Source: a virus
Length of the DNA stretch: 41,649 nt
Reading direction: 5' to 3' (one strand)
Virus record (IMG/VR): IMGVR_UViG_3300029452_000003
Positions within the stretch are counted from its first letter, which is position 1, and every line of letters starts with the position of its first letter. The notes under the pieces were generated by a model. It made no database searches. It was not told the DNA's origin and saw only the letters and a program-made list of their open reading frames with translations. A program made the translations under genes and the position numbers. Of this stretch, positions 6,548 through 40,353 are shown piece by piece.

Positions 6548-7666
6548 ATGGAATATAATCTCGTCATTTCAGGCACTATTGGCAGTTGGTGGAACGGTTG
6601 TTCTGCCGACTATGTCCGTTATGTGCTCAATAAGAATAGTGGTAAAGAAGTGCATGTCGGCTTCTGCTCACTCGGCGGCTTCGTTAAAGATGGCTTGGAG
6701 ATTAATCAGGCTTTCCGTGATCACGGCAACGTACACGCTCACGCCTTCGGCATGAACGCATCTATCAGCACTATCGCCATGCTTGGCTGCAAGACTATCG
6801 ACATCGTCAAGGGCAGCTTCTTCCTTATCCACAACGTGTCCACTCTCATCTACAAGTACGAGCAGAGCAACAAGGAGCAGATTGATGCTTTCGTGCGCAA
6901 GCTTCAGGCGCAGCGCGACTCGCTCAAGAACTTCGACGACGTGCTTGCCTCTATGTACGCCGACAAGACCGGCAAGTCTGTCGATGAGTGTCTCGCCCAG
7001 ATGAAGAAGGGCAACTGGCTCACCGCGCAGCAGGCTCTCGACTTCGGACTTGTCGATTCCATACGCGAAGACAAGGAGGCAGAGAAGGCTGCCAACGAGT
7101 TTACCGGACAATTTACAAACTCTTACAACATATCTCAATTTAAGGATGCAGGCATACCGCCACTACCTCAATCACTTGCCTCGGAAGACGCAGCAGCTCG
7201 TGTCGCGTCAGTGGTTGACGGTAGCGGCAATCCAACTCCGAGCTTCATCGAGAAGACGTGCGAAGGGCTCAAGAACCTCTTCCGTAACCAACACGCATCA
7301 AAAACTTCAAACAAAATGATTAAAATCTTTGCTTGCGTCATGGCATTGCTCAATGCCACTGACGGTTTCGCAACTAACGAGGATGGCAACATCACCCTCA
7401 CCCAGGAGCAGATGAAGAGCATCGACGATCGTCTTCAGGAACTTGAAGAGAAAGACAAGACTAACGCAAAGGCGGTGTCTGAAGCCGGCAAGGCTGTCAA
7501 GGAACTCAAGGATCAGCTCGCCAAGGCTCAGAACGAGTCCAAAGAGAAGGATGCTCAGATCGCAGCTCTCAAGGCCTCTGCTGGCACCACTACTGTTGAT
7601 AATCCTGCCAACAGCGAGGAGAGCTTCACTGCGCAGGACGTGTTTAACCTTATTAAAGATGTATAA
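6548..7666 (+). CDS. ClpP-like (S14) prohead serine protease fused to a coiled-coil scaffold-like C-terminal domain
   Basis: ClpP-type motifs GMNASISTIAMLG (Ser) and FLIHNV (His). The C-terminal ~100 aa are Lys/Glu-rich coiled coil (LQELEEKDKTNAKAVSEAGKAVKELKDQLAKAQNESKEKDAQIAALKA). Located directly upstream of the capsid candidate. Confidence 0.75.
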   Translation: MEYNLVISGTIGSWWNGCSADYVRYVLNKNSGKEVHVGFCSLGGFVKDGLEINQAFRDHGNVHAHAFGMNASISTIAMLGCKTIDIVKGSFFLIHNVSTLIYKYEQSNKEQIDAFVRKLQAQRDSLKNFDDVLASMYADKTGKSVDECLAQMKKGNWLTAQQALDFGLVDSIREDKEAEKAANEFTGQFTNSYNISQFKDAGIPPLPQSLASEDAAARVASVVDGSGNPTPSFIEKTCEGLKNLFRNQHASKTSNKMIKIFACVMALLNATDGFATNEDGNITLTQEQMKSIDDRLQELEEKDKTNAKAVSEAGKAVKELKDQLAKAQNESKEKDAQIAALKASAGTTTVDNPANSEESFTAQDVFNLIKDV

Positions 7667-11026: not shown

Positions 11027-11620
11027 ATGCTTCCAGTTAACCTCGATGAATATTCGCGCTATGTCACCCTCGACGATGCTGAACTGCGTCAGCTCCGTGT
11101 CGCCGAGGGTGTATTGCTGCGTCTTCATCGCATACGCGGCATGTATGCCTATTGGTTGCAGTTCCCGTCAAAGGTTGACAACGACCTGGTGCAGTACGAT
11201 ATGGCTATGTTCAAGGTATCGCGCTCTCTTGCTTACGAGGATCTGCATCTGGTCAAGGTGCTACTCGGCAATCTTCAGCAGACTACGAAGGAGTTCATGC
11301 GCTGGAAGATTAACAAGTCGCTCGAGCAGGACGTCGCTGCAGCACGCCGCGCCGGCGACTTCCGGTCGGTGGCTGCGCTCTCTAAGGTGCTCGTGGCTAA
11401 CAACCGCACCGATAAGGACGACGAACCCGACCTCGAATTCGACAAGATCGTGCCTCAGAACTTCGAGCCGACAGACGACCCTACGGTTCTCGGCATCGAG
11501 CGCATCCCTGACCTGCGTGGCAAGATACGTGCTCTCTACAAGCGCTACTCCAACACTATGATACAAGATGCTGATTTCGAGGAGATAAAAGAAGAGATAA
11601 AACCCGACGAAGATGAGTGA
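11027..11620 (+). CDS. Putative terminase small subunit (by position)
   Basis: 197-aa ORF from MLPVNLDEY. It overlaps the TerL start by 8 nt. The upstream extension of the ORF to 10838 looks like non-coding read-through. Confidence 0.4.
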   Translation: MLPVNLDEYSRYVTLDDAELRQLRVAEGVLLRLHRIRGMYAYWLQFPSKVDNDLVQYDMAMFKVSRSLAYEDLHLVKVLLGNLQQTTKEFMRWKINKSLEQDVAAARRAGDFRSVAALSKVLVANNRTDKDDEPDLEFDKIVPQNFEPTDDPTVLGIERIPDLRGKIRALYKRYSNTMIQDADFEEIKEEIKPDEDE

Positions 11621-13244
11621 TTGCATTGAACAACCAAACCTTCAGTATTTCAACGACGCGCAGTATTACGCACTCGCCATGAACACACGCGACGAGGTAA
11701 TCGTTGCCGGACGTGGTGTGGGCAAGGGTGCTATTCAGGCGCGCCGTCTGCAGTCGTGCTTTCAGGGTATGCCCGGCTCCATGGGTGGCTTCGTAGCTCC
11801 GTCCGTCAAGCGTTGCCTGACCAATATCCTGCCCTCCATGCTCATCCACCTCGAGCGATGGGGCTTCAAGCGCGACCTACACTATGTCGTGGGTCGGCGA
11901 CCGTGGAAGAAGCTCCACTGGAAATCGCCTATCTTCACGCCGGCGAACTGGGAGAACACCATCAGTTTCTACAACGGCTCCGTCTGCAATGTCATCTCGC
12001 AGGACCGCTCGGGCACGTCCAACTCGATGTCGCTCGACTATCTCATCATCGACGAGGCGAAGTTCATCGACTTCGAGCAGCTCAAAGACGAGACCTTTCA
12101 AGCCAACCGAGGCAACGAGATGTACTTCCGCCATTTCCCTCTGCATCATGGCATGACCATCACTTCCGATATGCCTATCACCAAGAAGGGCTCCTGGTTC
12201 CTCAACTACAAGGATAAGCAAGACCCAGAACTGGTGGAGGTCATCGAGGGGCTGGTCTACCAGATATGGAGACTGAAGCAGAAGCTGCTGAAGACTCCCG
12301 ACAAGCACGAGCAGATCCAGCGACGCATAGACGAGTACAACAAGCAGCTCAACTTCTTTCGCTCGCAGTGTTTGCTCTACCGCGAATATTCATCAATCGA
12401 GAACCTCGCACTCCTGGGCGAGGAGTTTATACGCCGTGCCAAGCGCGACCTTCCACCGCTCACCTTCGCCACGTCTATCATGTGCCAACGTGTGAGCATA
12501 TCGGCTGACGGCTTCTACGGTGGCATGAGCGAGACCGCCAACCTATACACGGCACCCAACGAGAGCGTGCTCAACCTGCACAACCTCGCCAACGCCGAGG
12601 GTGGTGCGCTACCTAACGATTGCCGCATGGATGCCGACCGCAACGACAAGCTGCCGTTGCTGATAGCCTTCGACACTAACAACCTCATCAACTGGCTCGT
12701 CGTCGGTCAGGTGCAAGGCTCGAAGCTGCGCGTGCTCAAATCGTTCTTCGTCAAATACGAGCGCAAGATTCCTGAGTTGCTCGACGACTTCAATACGTAC
12801 TACCACTATCATCGCCGTCGTCAGATCATCTTCTACTACGACTCTACCATGGTGGGCACCAACTGGGGCTTGCACTACAACGACCCTCATAAAGAGGTGG
12901 TGCGCACGCTGCGCTCGATGGGCTGGGCGGTGCGCGAGGCTTATCTCGGCAACCCGATGAACCACGTACAGAAGAACGCTCTCATCAATAATATGTTTCG
13001 CGGGCGTGCCCGTCTGCAGGTGCTCGTCAACCGCGACAACAACCCCGACATGCTCATCTCCATAACCTCTGCCGGCGTGTACAACGGCAAGAAGGATAAG
13101 CGTGGAGAGAAGCTCGCAGAGACCGAGGAGGATAAGCTGGAGGCTCGTACCGACGGTTCCGATGCCTTTGACGTGCTCTGCATAGGCGCGGAGACCAAGC
13201 CGGTGTTCCAGGGCACCGGCGGCACAACCAACACATACGGCTAA
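11613..13244 (+). CDS. terL: Terminase large subunit
   Basis: Walker A-like VAGRGVGKGA and Walker B DYLIIDEAKF. 543 aa with a C-terminal nuclease-sized domain. Typical size and position. Confidence 0.85.
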   Translation: MSDCIEQPNLQYFNDAQYYALAMNTRDEVIVAGRGVGKGAIQARRLQSCFQGMPGSMGGFVAPSVKRCLTNILPSMLIHLERWGFKRDLHYVVGRRPWKKLHWKSPIFTPANWENTISFYNGSVCNVISQDRSGTSNSMSLDYLIIDEAKFIDFEQLKDETFQANRGNEMYFRHFPLHHGMTITSDMPITKKGSWFLNYKDKQDPELVEVIEGLVYQIWRLKQKLLKTPDKHEQIQRRIDEYNKQLNFFRSQCLLYREYSSIENLALLGEEFIRRAKRDLPPLTFATSIMCQRVSISADGFYGGMSETANLYTAPNESVLNLHNLANAEGGALPNDCRMDADRNDKLPLLIAFDTNNLINWLVVGQVQGSKLRVLKSFFVKYERKIPELLDDFNTYYHYHRRRQIIFYYDSTMVGTNWGLHYNDPHKEVVRTLRSMGWAVREAYLGNPMNHVQKNALINNMFRGRARLQVLVNRDNNPDMLISITSAGVYNGKKDKRGEKLAETEEDKLEARTDGSDAFDVLCIGAETKPVFQGTGGTTNTYG

Positions 13245-13282: not shown

Positions 13283-13319
13283 CCGCTGGCGCGAGATGCG
13301 TCGGCGGCTTTATTTTTTT
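13283..13319 (+). terminator. Rho-independent terminator after terL
   Basis: ccgctggcgc (13283-13292) pairs with gcgtcggcgg (13298-13307), including two G-U pairs. Followed by ctttattttttt. Confidence 0.6.
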
Positions 13320-13407
13320 ATTATTACTACAAAAAAGTGTAGTAAATATTTGTATAATACGAAAATTTGTAGTACACTTTGTAGTGTCTTAAAAAAAGTA
13401 ATACAAT

Positions 13408-13545
13408 ATGAATAAAGAATTAACAGAAGAAGAGGCAGAACTGATAGAAGCTATCAGAGCCCACAAAAGAAGTTACCCGAATGGTCATCCTCAGTTGTTA
13501 TGGTACGCACAAGAGCTGTTCGATGAGATGACATCAGTTAAGTAA
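13408..13545 (+). CDS. Tiny ORF A1a (45 aa), paralog of 16992-17123
   Basis: MNKELTEEEAELIEAIRAHKRSYPNGHPQLLWYAQELFDEMTSVK. Shares TE.E.ELIEAIR....YPNG with the 43-aa ORF at 16992. Below the 60-aa cut-off of the ORF track. Confidence 0.55.
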   Translation: MNKELTEEEAELIEAIRAHKRSYPNGHPQLLWYAQELFDEMTSVK

Positions 13546-13588
13546 TTCTAACAAGGCAGCCCGAAAGGGCTGCCCTAACTAACACAAT

Positions 13589-13837
13589 ATGGAAAAGAAC
13601 AAACAAGCAAAGGACAATACTGTTAAGCAACGCTTGCAGGACATTCTGCTGAGTGTATCATGGCGTGATATCGCCAATACTTATTTCGACCGCTCGGCTT
13701 CATGGTTGTATCATAAACTCGATGGAATCGATGGCAATGGTGGTGTCGGTGGGTTCACAGACAAGGAGAAGGAGCAGCTTCGTGGTGCTCTTGTCGACCT
13801 CAGCGACCGCTTACGCCGTGCTGCTGACAATATTTAG
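13589..13837 (+). CDS. DUF5053-like small protein A1b (82 aa), paralog of 17169-17414
   Basis: Shares SWLYHK and L(R/K)GALVD..(R)LR..AD with the 81-aa ORF at 17169. My recollection is that this matches the Bacteroidales DUF5053 family; that is unverified. Confidence 0.6.
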   Translation: MEKNKQAKDNTVKQRLQDILLSVSWRDIANTYFDRSASWLYHKLDGIDGNGGVGGFTDKEKEQLRGALVDLSDRLRRAADNI

Positions 13838-13891
13838 GCAGATGTTGTATTACATTTAAGACACAAGTCGTCCGTGCCTACGGATGCACTC

Positions 13892-13923
13892 AGCCTCGGC
13901 ACTTCGGTGTCGGGGCTTTTTTG
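13892..13923 (+). terminator. Terminator (UUCG tetraloop hairpin + T tract), family 1 copy 1
   Basis: agcctcggcac / ttcg / gtgtcggggct followed by tttttt. Same element at 17435-17466, with a compensatory C-G to A-T change. Confidence 0.75.
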
Positions 13924-14625
13924 TTGGCAATTGTCAACCTCGCACCGTCTCGTCTTACCGCTGATGGGCGCAAAATCGACAAGCCAAAATCACATACTCG
14001 TCACAACCGCCAGCATATTCCGCTAAAGGCGAGGAAGGCAATTGCCAACTCGGCGCAGGGCGGTGTAGTGCTGCATAGACAGAAAGTCTTGCACCCTGCA
14101 AAATCGTAATGCTTAACTCGTTGATTTTTAAGCATTACGATTTTGCAGCTATGGAAAAGGTACGCGAAAACGCGCTCATTTCTCTATTCCGGGCTTCTTT
14201 TTATTGCGGAAAAGAAGCAAAAACGCTTGCGAAAACAAGTTTTCGAGTGGTATTCTCCGGTAGAGAATGCTATTTTTTACATCTTGCGCTATTCCGTTCG
14301 AGAGCATTTTAGAAGATTATTGTACATCGGGTAGAGTGTCGTTTTTACTTCGCGAATTTACGGCGGACGGCTGCCACCCAAGCACCGATGCACTAAAGTG
14401 ACAGAAATTTTACAGCAGCCTTCCGACTTTTCTTCCTACGGCTTCCTTCAAAAACTCGGTTTTCCATAAAATTTCAATCCCTTTTGCTTGTCCTCTCGCC
14501 TTACTTCCACCGTCTTTTTGCGGCGTAAAAAGCGAAATTCGACCCGACGTGAATAAAAAAAACTCTCAAACGGGCTACAGATGAGATGTGTAAAAAGCTC
14601 TCTTCTCGCCTCGGAGAATAATTTT
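13923..14625 (+). ncRNA. Candidate structured non-coding RNA or long structured 5' leader of the PRTase gene
   Basis: About 0.7 kb without a credible ORF on either strand in an otherwise densely coding genome. Helices: 13923-13933/14039-14049 (11 bp), 14096-14116/14128-14148 (21 bp perfect), 14193-14201/14210-14218 (9 bp), 14364-14374/14415-14425 (10 of 11). Confidence 0.3.
14096..14148. repeat. Perfect 21-bp inverted repeat with 11-nt spacer
   Basis: ctgcaaaatcgtaatgcttaa / ctcgttgattt / ttaagcattacgattttgcag. No T tract follows, so it is not a classical terminator. Confidence 0.9.
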
Positions 14626-14639
14626 AAGGAGGACAAAAA

Positions 14640-15173
14640 ATGAAAACAGCCAGTTTCTACAGCTATATGCCGAAGCGTTACACCACCGACGACGTGCAGA
14701 CCGAGCGCATCAGACGCTTTATTTATTCTTTCAAGCGCGGCGACCGCCATGCGGTAGACTTCGCCGTCAACATCGTAAGCGAGTGCCTTAATAAATGGTA
14801 CGGCGCAAGCAATCAAGACTATGTGCTCGTGTGTATTCCTGCAGCTACAAGTGCCAAGTATAACCGCCGCTTTAAGCGTTTCGCCGAGGAGGTAAGCAAG
14901 CGCACCGGCATACAGAACGGCACGGCACACGTGAATATCTTCGGCATGCGCGAAGCGAAGCACAACAACGCCGCGCACATCGTCAGCGAGTCGTATGGCT
15001 ACCACGTGAGCACCGACCCCGACTTCTTCGCAGGCAAGAACGTGATACTCTTCGACGACCTCATTACTACAGGAGCCACGGCGGAGGAGTTCGCCGCCGA
15101 ACTCGCAGCGGTAGACGCTAACGTCATCGGCGGCTTGTTTCTCGCACGCACCAAACTCATGAATAACCATTAA
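14640..15173 (+). CDS. ComF-like type I phosphoribosyltransferase (PRTase) domain protein, no zinc finger
   Basis: PRPP-binding loop VILFDDLITTGATAEEF. Upstream YVLVCIPAATSAKYNRRFKRF resembles the ComF core. A canonical SD (aaggagg, 14626-14632) lies 7 nt before the ATG. Confidence 0.8.
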   Translation: MKTASFYSYMPKRYTTDDVQTERIRRFIYSFKRGDRHAVDFAVNIVSECLNKWYGASNQDYVLVCIPAATSAKYNRRFKRFAEEVSKRTGIQNGTAHVNIFGMREAKHNNAAHIVSESYGYHVSTDPDFFAGKNVILFDDLITTGATAEEFAAELAAVDANVIGGLFLARTKLMNNH

Positions 15174-15184
15174 AGCTAAACAAT

Positions 15185-15865
15185 ATGAACAATTTTTCAG
15201 AACTCGTTCGCGAAGAACGCCCCGACTACAAAGTATATAATAGCGGTTTCGACTCGCTCAACAGCGTTGAACTCATAAGCCTAATAATAGGGCAAGGCAA
15301 AAGCACGCACGCAGCCATGCAGCAGGCTCGCCAGATAGTGAACATTTGCGGCGGCAGTCTTCGCGACATCGCCACCCGACGCGCCGAAGAACTACAAGTA
15401 GTGCAGGGCGTAGACCCCAAGAAAGCAATGACACTACAAGCAGCGTTCGAACTCGCTAAGCGCATCGAGCGCGAAGCAGCAGCCGACCGCCCGAGCTTCA
15501 GAACCGCCGAAGACGTTTGGCGATACTTCCGCCCGATAGTGGGCACGGCAGACCATGAGGAAGCGCACGTGCTGCTCATGAACAATAATTTCAAACTGAT
15601 TAAAGCCGTGAAACTATCAAGCGGCGGACTCACCGAGACAGCCGTAGACGTGCGCATCATATTGCGCGAAGCTCTCGTCAACAACGCCACCACGCTCACC
15701 CTGATACACAACCACCCAAGCGGCAACCCGTGCCCGAGCCGCGACGACGACCGCATCACGGCGACGCTAAAGCAGGCGTGCTCTACAATGCGGCTCTATC
15801 TGATAGACCACGTCGTCGTAACGGATAGCACATACTACAGCTATTCGGAGGAGGGCAAGCTATAG
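15185..15865 (+). CDS. radC: RadC-family JAB/MPN+ domain protein (full length with N-terminal HhH-like region)
   Basis: JAMM motif LIHNHPSGNPCPSRDD. The overall 226-aa layout is typical of RadC/UPF0758. Confidence 0.9.
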   Translation: MNNFSELVREERPDYKVYNSGFDSLNSVELISLIIGQGKSTHAAMQQARQIVNICGGSLRDIATRRAEELQVVQGVDPKKAMTLQAAFELAKRIEREAAADRPSFRTAEDVWRYFRPIVGTADHEEAHVLLMNNNFKLIKAVKLSSGGLTETAVDVRIILREALVNNATTLTLIHNHPSGNPCPSRDDDRITATLKQACSTMRLYLIDHVVVTDSTYYSYSEEGKL

Positions 15866-15874
15866 ACCGCATCG

Positions 15875-16042
15875 CACCGACCTCACGCATCGAGGTCGGT
15901 GTGGTCGCAACCATTTTGTTGAGCTCAACGAAATGGTTGCTTCTCTTCCCACCCACCGCCCTTCCGCCCGCCGCAAAAACGCCTGCAGCATTTTTGCGGC
16001 GGGTCCCAAAGAGGTAAAAAGCCACCATTTAGAGGCTTTTTT
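15875..16042 (+). terminator. Stack of four consecutive strong hairpins after radC (only the last has a T tract)
   Basis: 15875-15901 (10 bp). 15907-15940 (17 bp around gagctc). 15967-15979/15991-16003 (13 bp). 16016-16042 (aaaaagcc/ggcttttt followed by T tract). Confidence 0.5.
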
Positions 16043-16084
16043 CATTTTTCTAACAAAACAAGGTGATTATATCAAAAAAAATCG

Positions 16085-16097
16085 CTTACTTTGCAAA
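16085..16097 (+). promoter_or_regulatory. Conserved promoter-like box CTTACTTTGCAAA (copy 1)
   Basis: Identical 13-mer at 18359-18371. Both are preceded by an A-run and both sit upstream of a small-ORF + membrane-protein pair. Contains a TTTG -7-like core. Confidence 0.4.
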
Positions 16098-16147
16098 CAG
16101 CAAGAAAGAAAATGACATCTAAAACAATAAAACAAGGAGGCAAAATT

Positions 16148-16381
16148 ATGTGCATTATCAACGACATCACCCATTTTGTAAAAAATGGTTTTACTGTTTT
16201 GCGCCATGCCTCTTCCGGCAAATACGAAGAGAACTCACTTGAAATTGAGGCACTGAAGCGTGAGATGTTCTGTAAACCATCAAATCGTCACACAGATATG
16301 GAGAACCTCAGAAAAGATCGTGACAATATTGCCCGTGACGTACGCACGGCGTTTAATAATTTAGTTTTGAACAATGGCTAA
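16148..16381 (+). CDS. Small protein B1a (77 aa), unknown function
   Basis: The ATG at 16148 is preceded by aaggagg (16134-16140). Alternative start at 16112. Overlaps the next gene by 8 nt. Confidence 0.5.
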   Translation: MCIINDITHFVKNGFTVLRHASSGKYEENSLEIEALKREMFCKPSNRHTDMENLRKDRDNIARDVRTAFNNLVLNNG

Positions 16382-16790
16382 ACAATCCTATTCAATTAAA
16401 GGCACAAACATCTCTAACGGAGATGCTGTTGGCAATCAGATTGAGCAGACAGTTTCTGTCGACGACAATATACTGCCTGCTCCTCAAGAATTGGCAGAGT
16501 ATAAAAATATTGACCCAAAAATTGTTGACTTCCTTATAAAGTCGTCAGAGCGTGAGCAACTTCACCGACATAAACAAGATGAAAAGAAGCTGAAGATACT
16601 CAACTACAACGAGCACAAGGTCGGCAATATGAATTGGTGGGGTATGTTCTTTGCCTTTTTTGCTATTGTTGCGACAATGGGGTTGGCAGCGTATGCTCTA
16701 TATCTTGATCGAGCGTGGTTTGCTGGTATCTTCGGCCTGGCAGGCATCGCAAGCATAGCGTCTGTGTTTATAAATAACAAAAGGGTGTAA
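16374..16790 (+). CDS. DUF2335-like membrane protein B1b (138 aa, two C-terminal TM helices)
   Basis: LPAPQELAEYKNIDPKIVDFLIKSSEREQLHRHKQDE followed by two hydrophobic helices. Paralog of 18625-19056. The DUF2335 assignment is from memory. Confidence 0.6.
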   Translation: MAKQSYSIKGTNISNGDAVGNQIEQTVSVDDNILPAPQELAEYKNIDPKIVDFLIKSSEREQLHRHKQDEKKLKILNYNEHKVGNMNWWGMFFAFFAIVATMGLAAYALYLDRAWFAGIFGLAGIASIASVFINNKRV

Positions 16791-16991: not shown

Positions 16992-17123
16992 ATGAGGTAC
17001 ACAGAAAAAGAAAAAGAACTGATTGAGGCTATCAGAAATTACAGAAAAGCCTACCCGAACGGAGCACGAGAACTTGAATTCTACATTATGGATTTAGTCT
17101 ACGAGCTTATGGAGAATGAATAA
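16992..17123 (+). CDS. Tiny ORF A2a (43 aa), paralog of 13408-13545
   Basis: MRYTEKEKELIEAIRNYRKAYPNGARELEFYIMDLVYELMENE. Followed by a GC hairpin at 17130-17151, as in copy 1. Confidence 0.55.
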   Translation: MRYTEKEKELIEAIRNYRKAYPNGARELEFYIMDLVYELMENE

Positions 17124-17168
17124 CCAAAAGCCCTCCCTCTCGGGGGAGGGCATAAAAAAGATATAAAT

Positions 17169-17414
17169 ATGGAATACGCAATCGTAAATCAGCAGACAAC
17201 AGTGCGTCAGGTACTCAATGACGTGTACGAGGACATTAATTGGGCTTATCTCGCACAGAACTATTTTGGAAAATCCCGCAGCTGGCTTTATCATAAGTTC
17301 AGCGGACGCAACAACGGCAAGCCCGACGACTTCAGCGACATCGATCGCGAGCGTCTCAAGGGTGCGCTTGTGGATATAGCAAACCGTCTGAGAATGACGG
17401 CTGACAAGTTGTAA
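17169..17414 (+). CDS. DUF5053-like small protein A2b (81 aa)
   Basis: Paralog of 13589-13837 (SWLYHK; LKGALVDIANRLRMTADKL). Confidence 0.6.
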   Translation: MEYAIVNQQTTVRQVLNDVYEDINWAYLAQNYFGKSRSWLYHKFSGRNNGKPDDFSDIDRERLKGALVDIANRLRMTADKL

Positions 17415-17434
17415 TAACTTATTATTTTGACACC

Positions 17435-17466
17435 AGCCTCGGAACTTCGGTTCCGGGGCTTTTTTA
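17435..17466 (+). terminator. Terminator, family 1 copy 2
   Basis: agcctcggaac / ttcg / gttccggggct followed by tttttt. Confidence 0.75.
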
Positions 17467-33483: not shown

Positions 33484-33510
33484 ATGTATTTTTTACTACA
33501 CTATATTTGT

Positions 33511-33547
33511 GCTACTTTTGGTTTACAAATCAAAAGTAGCATTTTTT
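33511..33547 (+). terminator. Hairpin + T tract ending 1 nt before the tape-measure ATG
   Basis: gctacttttg (33511-33520) pairs with caaaagtagc (33531-33540), followed by atttttt. A TATATTTG -7 box sits at 33503-33510. Confidence 0.5.
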
Positions 33548-36500
33548 ATGGCAACAACTCAAACTTTCGAGACCATCGTCAGTCTTAATGCGCAGCAAGC
33601 GAAGAATGAGATGGCAACACTAAAGAAAGCCCTCGATGACCTAAAGCAGAAGAAAGCCGAGGCACTCAAAGACCCTGGTACGTCGGTTAAAGACATTAAC
33701 AAGTTCGACAAGCAAATTAAGGCTGCCGAGGCAAGCCTTAAATCTTACAGCAATAGTGTTGCAAAAACAATAGACACGGTCAACAATATATCCACAGCAT
33801 CGTTAGGGGATATTGAAAAAGCAGCCCGTGAGGTGCGACGTGCGATGAAACAAGTGACAAATCCCGATGATTACAATGCGCTCAATGTTATTCTACAGCA
33901 CTGTAAGGATCGTATGGATTTTCTTAAAGATTCTACCGTGCATTCGCTGAAAGAGATGCAGGAACTAAATCATGCTACCGTCAATCTGCAACGAGTTCTT
34001 GGCGATATTAATGGCGCGTCGCTTAACGATCTTACTGCAGCTGCATCTACTCTGCAGAAAGAATTAAACGACATGTCGCCTAATACAGATGCCTTCGACA
34101 AAGCTTCAGAAAGTCTGCAAAAAATAAACACACGCATACAGCAGATACATTCGAGCCAAAAGGAGGCAAATCTGTCCATTGACAAATACGATAAAGAGAT
34201 AGCTGCTGCGAGACGCTCAGCCTCTGAACTCGCACGTGAAAATAAACTTATAGATGCTACGCTTAAAAATATCAGCGGTTCCTCGATGCGCGAACTTCAG
34301 TACTCGCTGAAAATAGTAAATGAACGACTCGAAGGCACTAAGCAGGGAACAAATGCTTTCGATGAGCTAAACAACAAGGCGAAACAACTAAAAAGACAGA
34401 TAACTGCCATCAACAACGAACAAACAACTTCTGTAGGTCTGTGGAAAGGCGCTGTCAATGGTTTGAATAAAAATTGGGGCGCAATCACTCAGACACTTTC
34501 TGCATTTACCGGCTTGTCTACAACAGTTCGTCAATGTGTAGATGCGTTTACAGACATGGACCAAGAGATGAACAATGTACGCAAGTACACCGGTCAGTCG
34601 ATGGAGGAAGTTGAGGAGATGAATGAAAACTTTAAGAAAGTTAACACAAGAACTGCGCGTGGCGAGCTGAACAAACTTGCCCAAGATGCGGGTAGGCTTG
34701 GCATCACCAACAGAAAAATGATCGAGGAGTTTGTTGATGTCGGCGACAAAATAAAGGTGGCTCTTGGTGATGACCTTGGTGACGGAGCTATCGGCAAGGT
34801 CGGTAAGCTCGCAATGGCTTTTGGCGAGGATGATCGCCTCGGCTTGCGTGGCGCAATGCTCGCAACGGGTTCTGCTATTAATGAGCTTGCACAGAACTCT
34901 TCAGCATCGGCTGGTTACCTCGTTGAGTTCACCGCTCGTGTCGCAGGTGTCGGCAAGCAGGTCGGCTTGACTCAGGCGCAAATCATGGGTTATGCTGCTG
35001 TCATGGACGAGAACATGCAGAAAGACGAAATGGCTTCTACCGCATTCTCTCAGCTGCTGACCAAAATGTCAACAGACACTAAGACTTTTGCTAAAATGGC
35101 AGGAGTAGACTTGAAGACCTTCTCTGACCTCGTTAAGAACGATATGAATAAGGCTGTCATTACACTTATGGATAATTTGAAATCTAAGGGCGGTTTCGAC
35201 CAACTTGGCAAAATGTTTGGCGATATGGGACTTGATGGTGCACGCGCCGTCGCTGTTCTCACAACAATGGCAGACAAGGTTGACGACATTCGTGAGCGCC
35301 AAGAGATAGCAACAGAAGCCTATCGTGAGGCAAAATCTGTTATCGAGGAATTTGACGTGCAGAATAGCACCTTACAAGCCGATGTTGATAAGGCAAAAAA
35401 TCGGTTCCGTGAGTTAACCATAGAACTCGGCGAGAAACTTTTGCCTGTAGTGAAATACACCATCAGTGCTGGCAGTCTACTCGTTAAGTCACTATCTGCA
35501 ATAACTTCATTTACTACGAAATACTGGAAGGTTCTTGTTGTCGTTACTTCTGGTATCGCGGCGTATACTTTAGCTGTAAAAGCTGCAGAGATAGCAGAGA
35601 TGGCACACAATGCTGTTAAGCTTAAAGGTTTAGCCATAGACAAAATGAAGAGGATGTACTCATCACTTATAGTTTCTGCACAAACGGCGTACGAAATTGC
35701 AGTAAAGGCTTGTACCCGCCAAATAAGCCTTGCAACTGCCGCACAAAAGATGTGGAATGAGGTTATACTGGCTAATCCTTGGGCAGCAGCCATTGTTACT
35801 ATGGTGGCAGTGACAGCTGCGCTTATCGCATTCACATCTAAAGCAGATAAAGCTACGATAGCTCAACGCGAACTTAACGAGGCAAATGCGGAAGCTGCTA
35901 CCCAATGCCGTTCGGAGATTGCAGAGCTTTCTACGCTCGTTGACTTGGTTAGAGACAAGGCTGCGTCCGATGATGCCAGGACAGAAGCTTTAAGAAAACT
36001 TCAGGAGAAATACCCCGGATATCTTGACAATCTTACACTTGAAAATATAAACTCAGACAAGGCTCGCGAGGCGGTCGACAATCTTACAGACTCCATCTTA
36101 GCACAAGCCAAAGCTCGTGTATATCTGTCAAAGATCGAGGAGTTGGAACGTAAAAAGCAAGATATTAACGAAGAGTATCTTGAAAGTTTCTGGGGGCGGC
36201 TTAAACAGTTCTGGCGGGCAGATTTCCAGGTAGCTGCTAACACACTCGCGCATTTTAGCGAAAAAATGTACAAATCCATAGACTATGGTGTTACCCACGC
36301 AATCAACTATGGTGATTTAAAAGGCTTTAAAGATGGTTGGACTGACCAAACGTACATTGAGCGTAAAGGCTATACGATGAACACTGCTGTAAAAATGAAT
36401 CGAAACCAGGCTGATGATATAGCAGAACTACAGGAAAAACAAAATGAATGGCTAAAGCGATATCAAGATGCGCAAAAAAAAGAGACAGAAAATTCACTTA

Positions 36501-38410
36501 AAATTCGCAAAGCAAACGAGCAACTTGGCAAGAACCAGAAAAACAATAACAACAATAACAACAATAATACAGAGTACGAATCTGAGGCAGAACAGAGAGC
36601 TAAGGCTATCGCTGCACGCAAGGCAGAAGCTGAGCGTAAACACGTCGAAGCACAAAAGAAAAAAGACCTTAAGGCTGCTATCGATGCTCAGAAAGCAATA
36701 ACAGAAGCTGAACTTGTTGAGAACTTTCGTAGGTACGCTGATGAAGGTTTACAGTATCGTGATTTCCTTAAAAAACAATATGAGATTAAAAGCAAAGGAC
36801 TCGACGAGCAGATTAAACTATATGGCGAAGAGTCAAACGAGGCACAAACCCTTATTCGCAAAAAAACAGAGCTCGAACAACAATATCAACAAGATAAGCA
36901 GATACTTGACGAAGATGAGCTTAAGCGCAAACATGCGAGCATCGCTATTGACTTACAAATGGCTTATGAGCAACAGTCTGCAAACAATGATATATACCAC
37001 AATGAAGAACGCCTTAAAGAGGAGTTATATCTCAATGAGATAGACTATCTAAAGAAGCGTCAAACCTTATACGATAAAAACCAACAAGAATGGCTTGATA
37101 TTGATGCAGAGATAAATCAACGGCAAGAGGAGCATAAACTTGAGCAAACGCAATATTATGCCGATCTCCTTTCTCGATATAAAGCAGAATGGGCAGCCAA
37201 AGATTGCCGAGAACAAGAGCGTATCACACTCCAAGGGCTCGAATCTCTACACCAAAAGGAGCTTCTTAAGGAAGAAGAATATCAGGAGATGCGCAAACAA
37301 GTCCTATTACATTATAAAGAGCAACAAGCAGCTGATGACTTGTACAACTCTAAAGGCGAGCAATTTAAACGCAATGTTGATAGTGCTTACAACGCAGCAT
37401 CTAACCAAGCGCAGGCATCATGGTCTAACAAACATGATGATGGAGTGAATGTTGGTGCTTTTATAACATCCGACATAGATATCTATGCGTCAACGCTTGC
37501 CAACATTAAATCGATGGAACAAGAGGGGCTTATCTCACATGAAGAAGCTATGGCTGCTATGGGCGAAGCTACAGCTAACATGTGTAATGGTTTGGTCGCT
37601 AAGATGCAAGCTGCTATGGACGCAATCTCGCCACTTATGAGCGCAATGTCGTCTTACTACTCTGCGCAGTCTGACTACGAGGTTACTATAACAGAGAAGA
37701 AGTACGAGAAGCTTATAAACGCTGCTGGCAACAACACTGCCAAACGCAAAAAACTGGAAGAGAAGAAAGAGAAAGAAATAGCTAAAATAAAAACAAAGTA
37801 TGCTAAAAAGCAAGCCGCAATGCAGATAGCCCAAGCTATTGCCCAGACAGCTATTTCGGCTATTGGTGCTTACAGCTCTGCAATGACCGGTATGCCTTAC
37901 CCTGCGAATATGGTACTTGCGCCTATTGCCGCAGGCATCGCTGCCGCAGCTGGAGCGATACAAATAGCCACTATCAAAAAGCAGCAGCAGGCGCAGGAGG
38001 CTGGCTACTACGAGGGTGGCTTTACGGGCGGTTCAAGCTATCGACGCAAGGCGGGCATCGTGCACGAGGGCGAATTCGTAGCTAACCACAATGCGGTTAA
38101 CAACCCGCAGGTTCTGCCGGCCTTGCAGCTCATCGACGAGGCGCAACGCAATAATACGGTTGGTTCGCTTACTGCAGTTGACATATCGCGCTCGCTCGGT
38201 CAGGGTGGTGCTACGGTGGTGTCTGCGCCATCGGTGACGGTCAACACCGACAACTCAGAGCTGAATGCTACCCTCGGCGAAGCTCGCGATGTTATCGACC
38301 AACTATCGCTGGTGCTCGCGCAGGGCATACATGCCAAGTGTTACATCGATGGCGATGATGGCATTGCCAAGAACCTCGACCACTATAAAAAATTAAAATC
38401 GCATACATAA
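33548..38410 (+). CDS. Tail tape measure protein (1620 aa)
   Basis: Very long and helical. TMP-core-like segment (GKVGKLAMAFGEDDRLGLRGAMLATGSAINELAQNS...GLTQAQIMGYAAVMDE). Internal hydrophobic helices and extended coiled coils. Confidence 0.85.
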   Translation: MATTQTFETIVSLNAQQAKNEMATLKKALDDLKQKKAEALKDPGTSVKDINKFDKQIKAAEASLKSYSNSVAKTIDTVNNISTASLGDIEKAAREVRRAMKQVTNPDDYNALNVILQHCKDRMDFLKDSTVHSLKEMQELNHATVNLQRVLGDINGASLNDLTAAASTLQKELNDMSPNTDAFDKASESLQKINTRIQQIHSSQKEANLSIDKYDKEIAAARRSASELARENKLIDATLKNISGSSMRELQYSLKIVNERLEGTKQGTNAFDELNNKAKQLKRQITAINNEQTTSVGLWKGAVNGLNKNWGAITQTLSAFTGLSTTVRQCVDAFTDMDQEMNNVRKYTGQSMEEVEEMNENFKKVNTRTARGELNKLAQDAGRLGITNRKMIEEFVDVGDKIKVALGDDLGDGAIGKVGKLAMAFGEDDRLGLRGAMLATGSAINELAQNSSASAGYLVEFTARVAGVGKQVGLTQAQIMGYAAVMDENMQKDEMASTAFSQLLTKMSTDTKTFAKMAGVDLKTFSDLVKNDMNKAVITLMDNLKSKGGFDQLGKMFGDMGLDGARAVAVLTTMADKVDDIRERQEIATEAYREAKSVIEEFDVQNSTLQADVDKAKNRFRELTIELGEKLLPVVKYTISAGSLLVKSLSAITSFTTKYWKVLVVVTSGIAAYTLAVKAAEIAEMAHNAVKLKGLAIDKMKRMYSSLIVSAQTAYEIAVKACTRQISLATAAQKMWNEVILANPWAAAIVTMVAVTAALIAFTSKADKATIAQRELNEANAEAATQCRSEIAELSTLVDLVRDKAASDDARTEALRKLQEKYPGYLDNLTLENINSDKAREAVDNLTDSILAQAKARVYLSKIEELERKKQDINEEYLESFWGRLKQFWRADFQVAANTLAHFSEKMYKSIDYGVTHAINYGDLKGFKDGWTDQTYIERKGYTMNTAVKMNRNQADDIAELQEKQNEWLKRYQDAQKKETENSLKIRKANEQLGKNQKNNNNNNNNNTEYESEAEQRAKAIAARKAEAERKHVEAQKKKDLKAAIDAQKAITEAELVENFRRYADEGLQYRDFLKKQYEIKSKGLDEQIKLYGEESNEAQTLIRKKTELEQQYQQDKQILDEDELKRKHASIAIDLQMAYEQQSANNDIYHNEERLKEELYLNEIDYLKKRQTLYDKNQQEWLDIDAEINQRQEEHKLEQTQYYADLLSRYKAEWAAKDCREQERITLQGLESLHQKELLKEEEYQEMRKQVLLHYKEQQAADDLYNSKGEQFKRNVDSAYNAASNQAQASWSNKHDDGVNVGAFITSDIDIYASTLANIKSMEQEGLISHEEAMAAMGEATANMCNGLVAKMQAAMDAISPLMSAMSSYYSAQSDYEVTITEKKYEKLINAAGNNTAKRKKLEEKKEKEIAKIKTKYAKKQAAMQIAQAIAQTAISAIGAYSSAMTGMPYPANMVLAPIAAGIAAAAGAIQIATIKKQQQAQEAGYYEGGFTGGSSYRRKAGIVHEGEFVANHNAVNNPQVLPALQLIDEAQRNNTVGSLTAVDISRSLGQGGATVVSAPSVTVNTDNSELNATLGEARDVIDQLSLVLAQGIHAKCYIDGDDGIAKNLDHYKKLKSHT

Positions 38411-38424
38411 CACAAAAGTATAAT

Positions 38425-40353
38425 ATGATACACTGCACTATCAACGGAGAGGTGGGCTACCCGTCCACCTCCGACAAAATAAAATTAACGTATAACAACC
38501 CGTATGTCCAGGATTCGGGCGAGTATTCCTATGATATCTCATTCCCGATGTCAATACATCAAAACGCGACTCTTTTCAAACACGTAAACCGCTTCGATGT
38601 AAAGAAGCGCATGTCGTCGTTCGATGATTGTAAGATATATGCAGATTACCGGCTTATCATATCAGGCAAGGGTACTGTCACTTCTATTAGCGATACAACC
38701 GTCAAACTTCAAATTGTTGGCGGCAAATCGCGTATCAAGTATAATTCTGCCTTCGAGAAGCATTTTATAGACGAGATCGATTATTCTGAGGGCGATTATG
38801 CTCTTTCTGGTCTTGACAGCCGATTTGAAAAAACCATACACCTAAAGGAGCAACCTGGCAGTGTATATATCAACCTCAAGGATAGCTGCACCGTTTCCTG
38901 CTACGCCGGCGTTTTCAATCCTGTTTGGGACGAAGCCAGCAGCCGTTTTGTCAACGACATATACTATCAAAGAAATGTCCTGACTGGAAAAAATGGTGAA
39001 TATTTAAATAATGGAAATCCTACAACATATACCACAATGGTGCGTCTTGCTATACAACCACGCCTGCAATATGTACTGGAGACGGTCTTGGAGCATGAGG
39101 GCTATGAGAACTATACATTTAATTTTGATACGTCGCATTTTCGCAGGATGTTTATCGTCAATGCGCACCCGACATTTAAGATCAAAGAGGCCTTACCGCA
39201 TTGGTCGGTTTACACGTTCTTAGAGGAGCTTAGCAAATTGCTGAATGTCAGATTCTTGTTCGATGATATTAAAAAGTCTGTTAATGTCGTACCTGTAGAA
39301 GAACTTTATTCCTCCGCAGCTGTCGCTTACGAATGCCTCGATGAGTACACTTGCGAGTTCGACGATGATGGCGCAAATCTGCTTGATGCCTCGAATATTG
39401 AATACAAGTTTGATGATACCACAAGTCGCTCTTGGCGCGATAGCATACCACTTAACGTGCAGCATATATACGCAACGAAATATTATAAAAATCGTGACGA
39501 AATGGGGGCGGCGTTAAAGCTCATGCCATTAAAAGAACAACGACAAACGATTTTTGCCGCACAAGCCGATGGTTACTTCGTTTATGCAAAATGGCCCAAC
39601 AAATGGAATTCTGACAAACTAACAGAGTCGCTCGTACCATGCGGCTTTTTCAGCCCGATAGTACGCGATGCAGATTCTACAGACTCCATTGAGATTAAAA
39701 TAGCACCAGCAAGCATTAGCCGAAGGAAACGGTCGCACAAAACAGATGTCGTAGATGGTAATCATTATGTGGTATGTCCGTCGGCAACCGATGACTATAC
39801 AGGGCCGTCTGGCTCGTATGAAGACGAAGGTGGAGAGCCTTATTCTTCAGTACAAGAAGCCATTGAAGGCGATGCGACCGAAGATACGCAAGAAGAGAAC
39901 AGCGTAGAGTCAGATAAGACCATGAGTGTCTTTTTTACGAGTTCGGAGAAATTCTATATGATGGAAGGCAAAGGCTCGTATTACGAGAACATCAAGGTGC
40001 CGGGTGGTCTTATGCCCGTCGATACGAATTTGTATTGCCATTTCCCCGTTTCATTTGTCGATCATCGTGCATATCCAGACTGGACTGGAGCAAAGGAGGC
40101 TATGTCGATGGATTTGCACCAGCTCCACCGCTTGCAGTATTCATCACCTGAAGACCTGAGAAAGGATATTACCCATCCAGATATAGATACACACAACCTG
40201 CGCTGCATCAAGTTCCTGACAGACGAGATTCCCGATCCTTCGAAAATATATGTCTTCCGCAGTCGGCGCTTCGTCTGTCAGAAGATAGAGGCAGAGGTCG
40301 TAGATGGTTGCGTCAGCCAAATAAAGACCGGCTACTTCTACGAGATACTATAA
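38425..40353 (+). CDS. Distal tail/baseplate-type protein (642 aa) by position
   Basis: Immediately follows the tape measure. No motif recognised. Confidence 0.45.
   Translation: MIHCTINGEVGYPSTSDKIKLTYNNPYVQDSGEYSYDISFPMSIHQNATLFKHVNRFDVKKRMSSFDDCKIYADYRLIISGKGTVTSISDTTVKLQIVGGKSRIKYNSAFEKHFIDEIDYSEGDYALSGLDSRFEKTIHLKEQPGSVYINLKDSCTVSCYAGVFNPVWDEASSRFVNDIYYQRNVLTGKNGEYLNNGNPTTYTTMVRLAIQPRLQYVLETVLEHEGYENYTFNFDTSHFRRMFIVNAHPTFKIKEALPHWSVYTFLEELSKLLNVRFLFDDIKKSVNVVPVEELYSSAAVAYECLDEYTCEFDDDGANLLDASNIEYKFDDTTSRSWRDSIPLNVQHIYATKYYKNRDEMGAALKLMPLKEQRQTIFAAQADGYFVYAKWPNKWNSDKLTESLVPCGFFSPIVRDADSTDSIEIKIAPASISRRKRSHKTDVVDGNHYVVCPSATDDYTGPSGSYEDEGGEPYSSVQEAIEGDATEDTQEENSVESDKTMSVFFTSSEKFYMMEGKGSYYENIKVPGGLMPVDTNLYCHFPVSFVDHRAYPDWTGAKEAMSMDLHQLHRLQYSSPEDLRKDITHPDIDTHNLRCIKFLTDEIPDPSKIYVFRSRRFVCQKIEAEVVDGCVSQIKTGYFYEIL

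Follow-up and report, generated by a model that had tools for sequence, protein, structure and literature searches.

The region described here, part of a viral DNA stretch of 41,649 nucleotides (the window), forms an accessory cassette, complete in itself, of a temperate gut phage of Prevotella/Leyella, in which a PRTase gene is followed by a full-length radC gene. By analogy with E. coli ShosTA, we tentatively favour reading the cassette as a conflict module of the toxin/antitoxin type in which RadC would be the neutralising partner, and part of this reading is that the module runs under its own structured RNA leader. The features are collected in Table 1.

Table 1. Features of the PRTase-RadC cassette and its borders, in window positions.
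Feature	Position	Strand	Basis
Intrinsic terminator closing the upstream DUF5053 unit	13892-13917	+	11-bp stem with 7 G-C pairs, then TTTTTTGTT
Accessory cassette (leader, PRTase, RadC, terminator stack)	14278-16041	+	blastn breakpoints against sibling phages
Structured leader, probably a 5' UTR RNA	14292-14618	+	RNAalifold, 14 non-redundant leaders
Shine-Dalgarno-like AAGGAGG, 7 nt 5' of the PRTase ATG	14626-14632	+	read from sequence
ShosT-like, ComF-related type I PRTase, 177 aa, single domain	14640-15173	+	PADLOC; AF2 and Foldseek
Full-length RadC, 226 aa	15185-15865	+	Pfam, NCBIfam, structure model
Four hairpins closing the cassette (15865-15906, 15907-15940, 15958-16014, 16015-16040)	15865-16042	+	MFE folding

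The initial annotation had described the two genes as phage cargo with 11 nt between them, bordered by a terminator on one side and a hairpin stack on the other, and each part of this description agrees with our results. Among siblings with ~99-100% identical TerL the cassette is, by blastn, either wholly there or wholly missing, with sharp junctions; of some 27 such phages, at 99-100% TerL identity, about 10 are without the block. The left edge is sharp in the alignment, falling directly after ...GAGAATGCTATTTTT, and homology with cassette-bearing siblings stops at 16041. The gap between the genes (15174-15184) has the described length, the ORFs flanking the PRTase locus are DUF5053, RadC and DUF2335, and both borders of the gene pair could be located, the upstream one as a hairpin with its T-run. 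This upstream terminator insulates the cassette from late-operon read-through; a paralogous copy of it lies at 17434-17465. The downstream stack of four hairpins has an MFE of -85.9 kcal/mol (z = -10.0), and none of 200 shuffles folded equally well. Its last hairpin is followed by a U-run and resembles an intrinsic terminator, and a terminator-like site is also seen at the second hairpin. No exact Bacteroidetes -7 box (TAnnTTTG) was found on the + strand from about 10.7 to 16.3 kb, and sigma-70-type promoter matches were at chance level. A blastn search of 13300-16300 against 50,697 phage records gave zero matches; the phage family is known from metagenomes and prophages only. The cassette is abundant among human-gut Prevotella phages, the exact RadC sequence occurring on 450 contigs. 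In sibling phages a neighbouring hotspot carries an HsdS-like protein and methyltransferases.

The upstream part of the cassette (14278-14639, about 360 nt) is a conserved structured leader. It folds as a long nested imperfect hairpin (helices 1-9) with two small 3' hairpins, and its core of about 180 nt (14349-14524) lies inside a rod of about 320 nt. In the leader alignment 96.1% of cells were paired, against 44-56% with the partners slid, and double changes were seen in 21 of the 74 pairs, against 2-7 with slid partners, which was matched in none of 500 shuffles. The covariance model R1 recovers the leader outside its training set (E = 1e-8 to 1e-19), with compensatory changes at 31 of 40 pairs in 25 distinct hits. 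The wobble counts (72 G.U vs 13 A.C) favour the sense strand and the cassette-empty sites hold no leader copy, for which reasons a single-stranded DNA (Frpo-like) promoter or an integron attC-like site is less likely. The Shine-Dalgarno-like site is kept in some cassette lineages only. The initial annotation had singled out the upstream 0.7 kb, of which the 14278-14639 part belongs to the cassette; the remaining 13918-14277, highly structured and nearly invariant, was rejected as a cassette component and is phage backbone, because it is limited to this phage species group and occurs with or without the gene pair.

In ICE-like elements, where one contig can have as many as four copies, the leader also stands before RadC alone, DUF2958, LPD11, DUF4313 and numerous small ORFs. 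Other PRTases are preceded by it too, and it marks dozens of further cargo genes of Bacteroidales phages and ICEs. The leader gave zero matches in Rfam 15, any retron ncRNA included; at permissive E-values the leader and the element upstream of it had chance-level matches only, and scans of the whole window with Rfam at gathering score and for tRNAs were empty. The radC RNA motif RF01754, presumed to be cis-regulatory and found in proteobacteria, is also found ahead of further DNA-related genes of mobile elements. Compared with it, the leader of Bacteroidales has a different sequence and a greater length, and in the leader of the window and in nine related loci RF01754 had no match, neither at gathering score nor at E<=10. 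Weinberg et al. (2010, PMC2864571) described the motif as a structured element that lies 5' of radC. The new leader is a candidate regulatory element, absent from Rfam, for timing the expression of conflict genes in Bacteroidales elements, and such a regulon, if real, would parallel the proteobacterial radC motif.

The first protein is of the annotated length and carries the annotated PRPP loop (VILFDDLITTGATA, residues 135-148), in which D139, D140, T143, G145 and T147 are invariant across relatives. As its only cysteines are C49 and C65, it has no 4-Cys zinc finger. The AF2 model (pLDDT 87.5) has a PRTase fold, and the best query-normalised TM-scores in Foldseek were to H. pylori ComF (7p0h, 0.62), the closest, and to ShosT (8zvd, 0.56). 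Pfam PF00156 scored 23.7 bits, slightly below its cutoff of 26.3, and NCBIfam comF TIGR00201 scored 29.5 bits, the cutoff being 233.55. The PADLOC ShosT model PDLC03962 matched at E=3.4e-12, covering positions 72-212 of the 237 in the model, the PRTase domain at the PsyrT C-terminus at 3e-8, the retron PRTase_III-A at 4e-4 and the long ShosT model PDLC03012 at E=0.016 only; the match by sequence to the ShosT crystal chains was marginal (E=0.08). Among the 1076 relatives found is a HAD+PRTase protein with the architecture of E. coli ShosT, and in the tree the window PRTase is separate from a ComF-like clade bearing the motif RG[FY]N[QH]. No comFA or other com genes were seen by the related PRTase loci, every context being phage or ICE-like. 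By these comparisons the protein is not a housekeeping ComF.

RadC is conserved across the majority of bacterial lineages and belongs to competence regulons; a review of it is reportedly titled 'RadC, a misleading name?'. We know of no established function for RadC, no biochemical activity ever shown for it and no demonstration that it is an antitoxin. The window protein, as long as annotated, has the Pfam domains PF20582 (UPF0758_N, HhH-type; 3.8e-12) and PF04002 (JAB; 9.4e-36), clears the NCBIfam equivalog cutoff (NF000642, 181.1 vs 180) and scores 149.5 against TIGR00608 (cutoff 133.85). The JAMM motif is intact (HNHPSGNPCPSRDD, residues 175-188), and the metal-site residues E125, H175, H177, S185 and D188 fall in invariant columns. 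The modelled JAB domain superposes on RadC 2qlc with a target-normalised TM-score (TMt) of 0.93 and an rmsd of 1.4-1.7, and the N-terminus has weak matches to ERCC1/XPF HhH domains. A housekeeping Prevotella RadC, encoded on the chromosome next to efp, rpsU and tyrS, is 53% identical to it across the whole protein and 69% identical within the JAB domain (residues 106-226). No PADLOC model covers RadC, and neither Pfam nor PADLOC gave a SLOG/DprA signal in it.

Related PRTases form a Bacteroidales mobile-element clade, with all 155 related loci in phage or ICE-like contexts. The gene directly 3' of the PRTase is RadC in 111 of these loci and a YpsA/DprA-like SLOG protein in 30, and an arrangement of PRTase, PRTase', DprA (PF02481, 2e-49) and HAD phosphatase occurs in 8 of the 155. 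The 30 SLOG loci belong to Bacteroidales ICE-like elements, in which a YpsA-family protein of 163-167 aa overlaps or abuts the PRTase stop codon; these partners match Pfam PF06908 (5e-21) and PADLOC ShosA (about 3e-5), and SSB, a short RadC and DUF2958 are found around the SLOG-linked PRTases. Downstream of one relative, P0058 (41% identity to the window PRTase), lies a DprA/YAcAr protein. A RadC neighbour is retained in the clade down to 33% identity. In the PRTase tree the RadC-linked proteins split into two lineages, and the SLOG-linked clade is the sister of one of these; RadC- and SLOG-linked PRTases thus interleave, and therefore RadC fills the ShosA slot, an interchange that is a non-homologous displacement in one slot. 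A crude NJ tree places the PRTase-linked RadCs themselves in among housekeeping and ICE RadCs.

The linkage of PRTase and RadC is strict and ancient. Their identities drop alongside that of TerL (97/98, 73/71, 46/52, 44/44 and 35/42%), and the pair moves jointly, being found behind a second TerL type and beside a ParB/PAPS-reductase/SNF2 block. A related PRTase type (L024, L314 and L349) has neither RadC nor SLOG downstream, and no RadC or SLOG domain was fused to the PRTase among the best 150 PRTase representatives. The initial annotation had proposed that the pair might be ShosTA-like, or else a novel system of two genes, with RadC as a possible DprA-like partner, and had named co-occurrence as a check: the co-diverging RadC neighbours, the PRTase with its ShosT match and its distance from housekeeping comF, the ShosA-like partners in the sister lineages and the presence or absence of the cassette among near-identical phages support this proposal.

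Both ShosTA (PADLOC ShosT PDLC03962/PDLC03012 and ShosA PDLC03961; PDB 8ZVB-D and 9W2P/Q) and the cassette are carried on mobile elements and consist of two genes in one operon, the first for a PRTase that is related to ComF and has an essential DD PRPP loop, the second for a DNA-binding partner from the competence/repair repertoire, and the nearest relatives of the window PRTase pair with SLOG/DprA-like proteins. In contrast, the partner here is RadC (HhH + JAB) instead of a DprA-like SLOG protein, a conserved structured leader precedes the operon, and the phage hosts are Bacteroidales. Moreover, the window PRTase has a single domain and no fused HAD-type pyrophosphatase domain, whereas in E. 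coli ShosT the latter forms the N-terminal residues 1-164; the HAD domain is not universal in the ShosT family, since PADLOC also has a short ShosT model. Mutation of D331/D332 abolishes the toxicity of ShosT (PMC11961720), and D139/D140 of the window PRTase occupy the same catalytic DD position. By analogy, the protein would be a minimal ShosT using PRPP through its DD/TTG loop, and it may make or consume a nucleotide-type compound, disturbing purine metabolism and DNA replication and so being potentially toxic. RadC, with its HhH DNA-binding and JAB hydrolase domains, would replace the DprA-like antitoxin ShosA in both place and role. ShosA counteracts ShosT via ssDNA and RecA and does not bind the toxin (PMC11961720, PMC12961424), which makes a DNA-binding protein such as RadC a plausible analogue. 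RadC could thus counter the damage without necessarily contacting the PRTase, either by DNA binding or repair, as for ShosA, or by hydrolysis of the PRTase product. For the prophage the gain might be the exclusion of other phages or of mobile elements (abortive infection), or its own stabilisation.

Other known systems share parts of the cassette. The YpsA(SLOG)-PRTase pairs (Burroughs et al. 2015; Brzozowski et al. 2019, PMC6459960) have a PRTase of the same clade, the SLOG slot corresponding to RadC in the window. The PRTases of invasive elements have been described as a distinct group with ComFC-like features, RadC has been proposed to be a nuclease or nucleotide-processing domain, and both are thought to serve inter-element conflict (Iyer et al. 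2017, PMC5512222). In the literature searched, RadC and PRTase were named together in PMC5512222 only, where these domains of polyvalent proteins are handled separately; in the loci surveyed here the two genes are instead a fixed operon, interchangeable with PRTase-SLOG pairs. The ComFC/DprA/RadC competence regulons group the same three superfamilies around incoming ssDNA; the cassette differs from them in having no zinc finger, ComFA or competence context and in consisting of mobile-element cargo. Retron type III-A has a PRTase effector with RT and msr/msd ncRNA, neither of which was found beside the window PRTase, and no window ORF scanned against Pfam/PHROGs matched a reverse transcriptase.

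Natural variants bear on the need for RadC. The PRTase is intact in two metagenomic variants with a broken RadC, one with a radC nonsense change (GAA to TAG at codon 162; L116) and one with a C-terminal deletion of RadC (L111), which argue against an absolute need for RadC. Opposite cases are a frameshifted PRTase (L210) and a PRTase with G145E (L006). The host's own 53%-identical housekeeping RadC might complement. Cassette behaviour is also seen in a deletion allele, present on more than 60 contigs, from which the PRPP loop and the greater part of RadC have been lost together in one step; the 177-aa proteins with both a PRTase match and PF04002 are this allele and were rejected as a functional fusion.

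The ShosTA-like reading has to be weighed against three others. The main rival, possible if doubtful, is that PRTase and RadC are non-toxic, early-acting proteins that aid the incoming element, either by processing or protecting its DNA or by making or salvaging a nucleotide against a nucleotide-depleting or signalling defence of the host; the RNA leader would then put them under joint control with the other entry genes that share it. The leader is common to conjugative-element genes typical of entry and establishment, which keeps such a counter-defence reading alive, and together with the methyltransferase hotspot in the adjacent slot of sibling phages it makes counter-defence fit as well as defence. 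Both proteins also occur as domains of polyvalent proteins proposed to act at DNA entry (PMC5512222), the SLOG-linked relatives have SSB, short RadC and DUF2958 as neighbours, and the variants with a broken RadC and an intact PRTase point the same way. However, the sole characterised relatives, E. coli ShosT and ShosA, are a toxin and an antitoxin with anti-phage defence, and an insulated cassette amid the morphogenesis genes of a tailed dsDNA prophage is more moron-like. RadC can occur by itself, while the PRTases of the clade hardly ever lack a partner, an asymmetry expected of a dangerous enzyme and its neutraliser.

A reversible modification as in DarTG, which we judge improbable, would have the PRTase phosphoribosylate a base of DNA, of RNA or of a nucleotide and RadC remove the mark by its JAB hydrolase (deaminase-like fold), as a LOG-type SLOG phosphoribohydrolase would in the sister systems. 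ShosT binds PRPP and causes DNA damage, with no acceptor base found in vitro (PMC11961720), the RadC JAB, YpsA/LOG-like SLOG and DprA superfamilies are predicted nucleotide or nucleic-acid binders or processors (PMC3239186, PMC6459960), and the metal site of RadC is intact and conserved. Against this, the proposal is wholly inferential, RadC has no demonstrated biochemical activity to our knowledge, and ShosA acts by binding ssDNA and RecA, enzymatic reversal not being reported (PMC12961424). Far less probable still is that comF and radC are hitch-hiking host housekeeping or competence genes without any conflict role, the alternative raised in the initial annotation. RadC lends it some ground, as an equivalog that is close to the host protein, above all in the JAB domain shared with the chromosomal copy beside efp, rpsU and tyrS. 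The PRTase, on the other hand, falls far under the comF threshold, has no zinc finger and stands in a clade apart from ComF-like proteins, the contexts are phage or ICE-like throughout, and the pair has long been linked and has its own conserved leader. For the PRTase such an origin is already largely refuted.

A more far-reaching version of the ShosTA-like reading, which we regard as rather unlikely in its entirety, is that RadC is a dedicated neutraliser of the ShosT-like PRTase, interchangeable with DprA/LOG-type SLOG proteins and maybe enzymatic in the manner of DarTG (removing a phosphoribosyl adduct or nucleotide), and that the new leader RNA controls the module and defines a conflict-gene regulon of Bacteroidales mobile elements. 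If true, neutralisation would be the first defined functional role for RadC. The position of RadC in the ShosA slot offers a simple genetic assay for its activity, namely rescue of PRTase toxicity, and the cassette ties the ComF/DprA/RadC competence trio to mobile-element conflict systems.

The sequence of the window is that of a tailed temperate phage or a prophage with Prevotellaceae as hosts; the closest genomic copy is in Leyella stercorea MSK.21.24 and others are in Prevotella species (features are collected in the table). On 450 public contigs the RadC sequence is found unchanged; the longest of them has 350 kb, and contigs of this size indicate integrated prophages. The PRTase-RadC pair is an accessory cassette, present in about 17 and absent from about 10 IMG/VR contigs with a 99-100% identical large terminase (TerL). 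In all these sibling phages sequence is kept up to 14277, the alignment shows a sharp left junction, and homology is found again from 17560 or 18276 (blastn). In other phages the cassette follows a TerL of unrelated type (26% identity) with the PRTase still 97% identical, and at 43% identity it adjoins a ParB/PAPS-reductase/SNF2 block. Cassettes up to 97%/98% identical (PRTase/RadC) lie downstream of a TerL 26-27% identical to that of the window in the related loci L170, L171, L178, L183, L192-L203 and L213, and packaging module and cassette are therefore mosaic relative to each other. The pair had initially been described as insulated by an upstream terminator and a downstream hairpin stack, and both are real; the anatomy of leader, PRTase, RadC and terminators is that of an insulated and autonomously regulated cassette. 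Directly 3' of it (16091-16790) come an ORF of 96 aa and one for a DUF2335 membrane protein of 138 aa (phrog_3996, category 'moron/host takeover'); some siblings lack this block, and in them homology passes from 16041 straight to 17560.

Features of the phage genome and of the PRTase-RadC cassette
Feature	Position	Strand	Description
Prohead protease	6548-7666		PHROGs match
Large terminase (TerL), putative	11613-13244		543 aa; named from size, position among the clustered head genes and the label in the initial annotation; no Pfam or PHROG match
Upstream terminator	13892-13917		
Cassette	14278-16041		blastn breakpoints against sibling phages
PRTase ORF	14640-15173	+	177 aa; type I PRPP loop VILFDDLITTGATA at residues 135-148
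RadC ORF	15185-15865	+	226 aa; starts 11 nt after the PRTase ORF
Downstream stack	15865-16042		four hairpins, MFE -85.9 kcal/mol, z = -10
Tail tape-measure protein, putative	33509-38410		1633 aa; named from the very long ORF
Tyrosine integrase	40348-41535	-	

The PRTase carries the PRPP loop and, having only two cysteines, is without the ComF zinc finger, as the initial annotation had it. Its AF2 model (pLDDT 87.5) has the PRTase fold, with the best query-normalised TM-scores to H. pylori ComF (0.62) and ShosT (0.56), the toxin of the anti-phage toxin/antitoxin system ShosTA. Judged by sequence it is not a housekeeping ComF, with 29.5 bits against TIGR00201 (comF) where the cutoff is 233.55. 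PADLOC models matched were ShosT (PDLC03962, 3.4e-12), the PRTase end of PsyrT (3e-8) and the retron III-A PRTase (4e-4). Among the 1076 relatives obtained in an exhaustive HMMER search are many long proteins that end in this domain, and one in which HAD and PRTase are combined as in E. coli ShosT; the window PRTase appears to be a minimal ShosT. ShosT is a PRPP-binding PRTase whose toxicity requires a DD motif, and ShosA is a DprA-like antitoxin that binds ssDNA and RecA and does not bind ShosT (PMC11961720, PMC12961424). Public annotations call the window PRTase a 'predicted amidophosphoribosyltransferase' and once, wrongly, a 'ribonucleotide-diphosphate reductase subunit alpha'. A perfect AAGGAGG lies at 14626-14632, 7 nt 5' of its start codon; a Shine-Dalgarno sequence this strong is uncommon in Bacteroidota, and the window RadC, unlike the PRTase, has none before it.

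The second gene had been claimed to encode a RadC with an intact JAMM motif, and its metal-site residues are indeed invariant (E125, H175, H177, S185 and D188 among homologues). It has an N-terminal UPF0758_N domain (3.8e-12) and a RadC JAB domain (9.4e-36), and is barely above the NCBI RadC equivalog cutoff (181.1 vs 180). The AF2 model (pLDDT 89) superposes on the JAB domain of C. tepidum RadC (2qlc, TMt 0.93), and its N-terminal helices have a weak likeness to ERCC1/XPF HhH domains. Compared with a housekeeping Prevotella RadC, whose gene adjoins efp, rpsU and tyrS, identity is 53% overall, 69% in the JAB domain (residues 106-226) and 29% in the N-terminal domain, and RadCs of ICE-like elements are about equally close. 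With such relatives, its biochemical activity is probably that of an ordinary RadC, whatever that is.

Loci were collected by scanning GTDB species-representative genomes and IMG/VR, with ORFs called and phmmer run on the loci, and the census comprises the 155 loci with a PRTase relative at E <= 1e-15. RadC is immediately downstream in 111 of them, which bears out the co-occurrence with this PRTase clade that had been put forward for checking. In 30 loci this place is taken by a YpsA/SLOG protein of 163-167 aa (PF06908, 5e-21, with weak DprA and PADLOC ShosA matches), and eight have a second degenerate PRTase, a full DprA (PF02481, 2e-49) and a HAD phosphatase downstream, apparently ShosTA split into four genes. 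Among the remaining six, one is unclassifiable at a contig end and five are without a scored partner: L005 is likewise cut off by the contig end, L108/L209 and L210 carry decay alleles, and in L024 the PRTase stands alone. After clustering at 80% identity, 13 of 21 PRTase clusters were RadC-linked and four SLOG-linked, and the most distant of the RadC-linked PRTases are only 33% identical to that of the window. More HMMER representatives alternate alike, with RadC partners at 39-43% identity and a DprA/YAcAr partner at 41%. An NJ tree splits the Bacteroidales mobile-element PRTases from ComF-like proteins and puts the RadC-linked PRTases in two lineages; one is sister to the SLOG-linked clade, so that RadC and SLOG/DprA proteins replace each other in one slot beside closely related PRTases. 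The PRTase-RadC linkage is ancient, since the two identities to the window fall together and with that of TerL (TerL/PRTase/RadC 99/97/98, 88/72/71, 72/46/52, 57/44/44 and 55/35/42% in example loci). Leyella stercorea carries both module types on different elements, a phage PRTase-RadC (L006) and an ICE-like PRTase-SLOG (L027, L034, L036) that hardly differs between many genera of Bacteroidales, and cross-talk between them within this species is a possibility.

The leader comprises the 360 nt from the left junction to the PRTase ATG, and between cassettes with PRTase identities of only 66-75% it is as well conserved as the coding sequence. RNAalifold gave a long nested rod (14292-14575), then two small hairpins up to 14618. 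In 14 non-redundant leaders, 96.1% of cells are paired (44-56% with partners slid), 21 of 74 pairs have changes on both sides (2-7 slid) and the covariation score is 0.177 (at most 0.06 slid). The corresponding values in 25 distinct cmsearch hits, whose alignment is fitted to the model so that pairing is somewhat inflated, are 91% (35-46%), 31 of 40 pairs (10-17) and 0.541 (at most 0.128), and 0/500 shuffles reached the observed value in either set. The excess of G.U over A.C pairs (72 vs 13, and 51 vs 28) favours folding of the sense strand, i.e. an RNA leader. A covariance model built on the core (14349-14524) detects the leader well beyond its training set (E 1e-8 to 1e-19), in copies within about 150 nt, mostly 40-145 nt, upstream of genes. 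These are PRTase-RadC operons, one PRTase-SLOG operon (L282), solo L024-type PRTases, RadC alone in ICE-like elements, DUF2958, LPD11, DUF4313 and many unannotated small ORFs, some of them of 64, 71-74, 156, 161 or 192 aa. The leader repeats up to four times on one IMG/VR contig, about 1 kb apart (L348, L304, L332, L350, L346 and others), and looks like a Bacteroidales mobile-element regulon or cassette array. No match was found in Rfam 15, the proteobacterial radC motif RF01754 (PMC2864571) included, and a canonical Bacteroidetes promoter box was looked for and not found.

RadC holds the position where ShosA-like proteins sit in sister systems, and a minimal ShosT with a partner in that slot favours reading the pair as a ShosTA-like toxin/neutraliser conflict module, a tentative reading to which we give slightly less than an even chance. 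The main rival, that PRTase and RadC are non-toxic establishment or counter-defence factors, seems less likely; it draws on the leader being common to conjugative-element cargo, on both proteins having 'polyvalent protein' domains (PMC5512222) and on methyltransferases in the adjacent hotspot. There, between TerL and the DUF5053 gene (equivalent to window 13311-13654), sibling phages L094-L117 carry either a 240-aa type I RM specificity-domain protein (PF01420) with a 240-aa NPPF N6-methyltransferase, a 260-aa DNPPF methyltransferase, or HicB-like proteins of 128-136 aa. Hitch-hiking of captured host genes, the alternative in the initial annotation, is essentially refuted for the PRTase, which is far below the comF cutoff and in a separate clade.

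Natural decay alleles speak both for and against the toxin/neutraliser reading. A one-step deletion destroying both genes is found on more than 60 contigs and is therefore a common natural double knock-out, not an assembly artefact; in this allele (L108/L209; P0324, P0326, P0328; window 15067-15745 equivalent) PRTase residues 1-143 are joined to the last 34 of RadC, giving 177 aa. RadC is intact and the PRTase lost in L210, by a frameshift, and in the cultured isolate L. stercorea MSK.21.24 (L006), in whose prophage the PRTase may be inactivated by G145E, a change in the PRPP-loop TTG that is invariant elsewhere. The reverse is seen in two RadC-null alleles, L111 and L116, the latter with a nonsense codon 162 (two-base change GAA to TAG); a suppressor tRNA was looked for in the window and not found. 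ShosTA and YpsA-PRTase pairs are already known. The RadC-partnered form has no model in PADLOC v2, and in the searchable literature RadC and PRTase are mentioned together only in PMC5512222, where they are treated separately. The particular value of the RadC-partnered ShosT-like pair is that RadC gains a testable role.

Two paralogous mini-units (13408-13922 and 16992-17465), each combining a short ORF (about 45 aa) with a DUF5053 ORF and a terminator that is near-identical in the two, flank the region of PRTase-RadC and DUF2335, and sibling phages have additional, diverged DUF5053 copies ahead of other cargo. Such an arrangement suggests that recombination between DUF5053 mini-units assembled a modular hotspot. 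Immediately upstream of the cassette junction is a non-coding element of about 360 nt (13918-14277), without an Rfam match and highly structured (RNA MFE -125.9 kcal/mol with z=-5.3 for the + strand; z=-6.3 for the - strand). Two inverted repeats lie within it, a perfect one of 21 bp (14096-14148) and another of 21 nt (13923-13943 / 14029-14049), and the element is nearly invariant, with one 33-nt indel, in 31 sibling contigs with or without PRTase-RadC.
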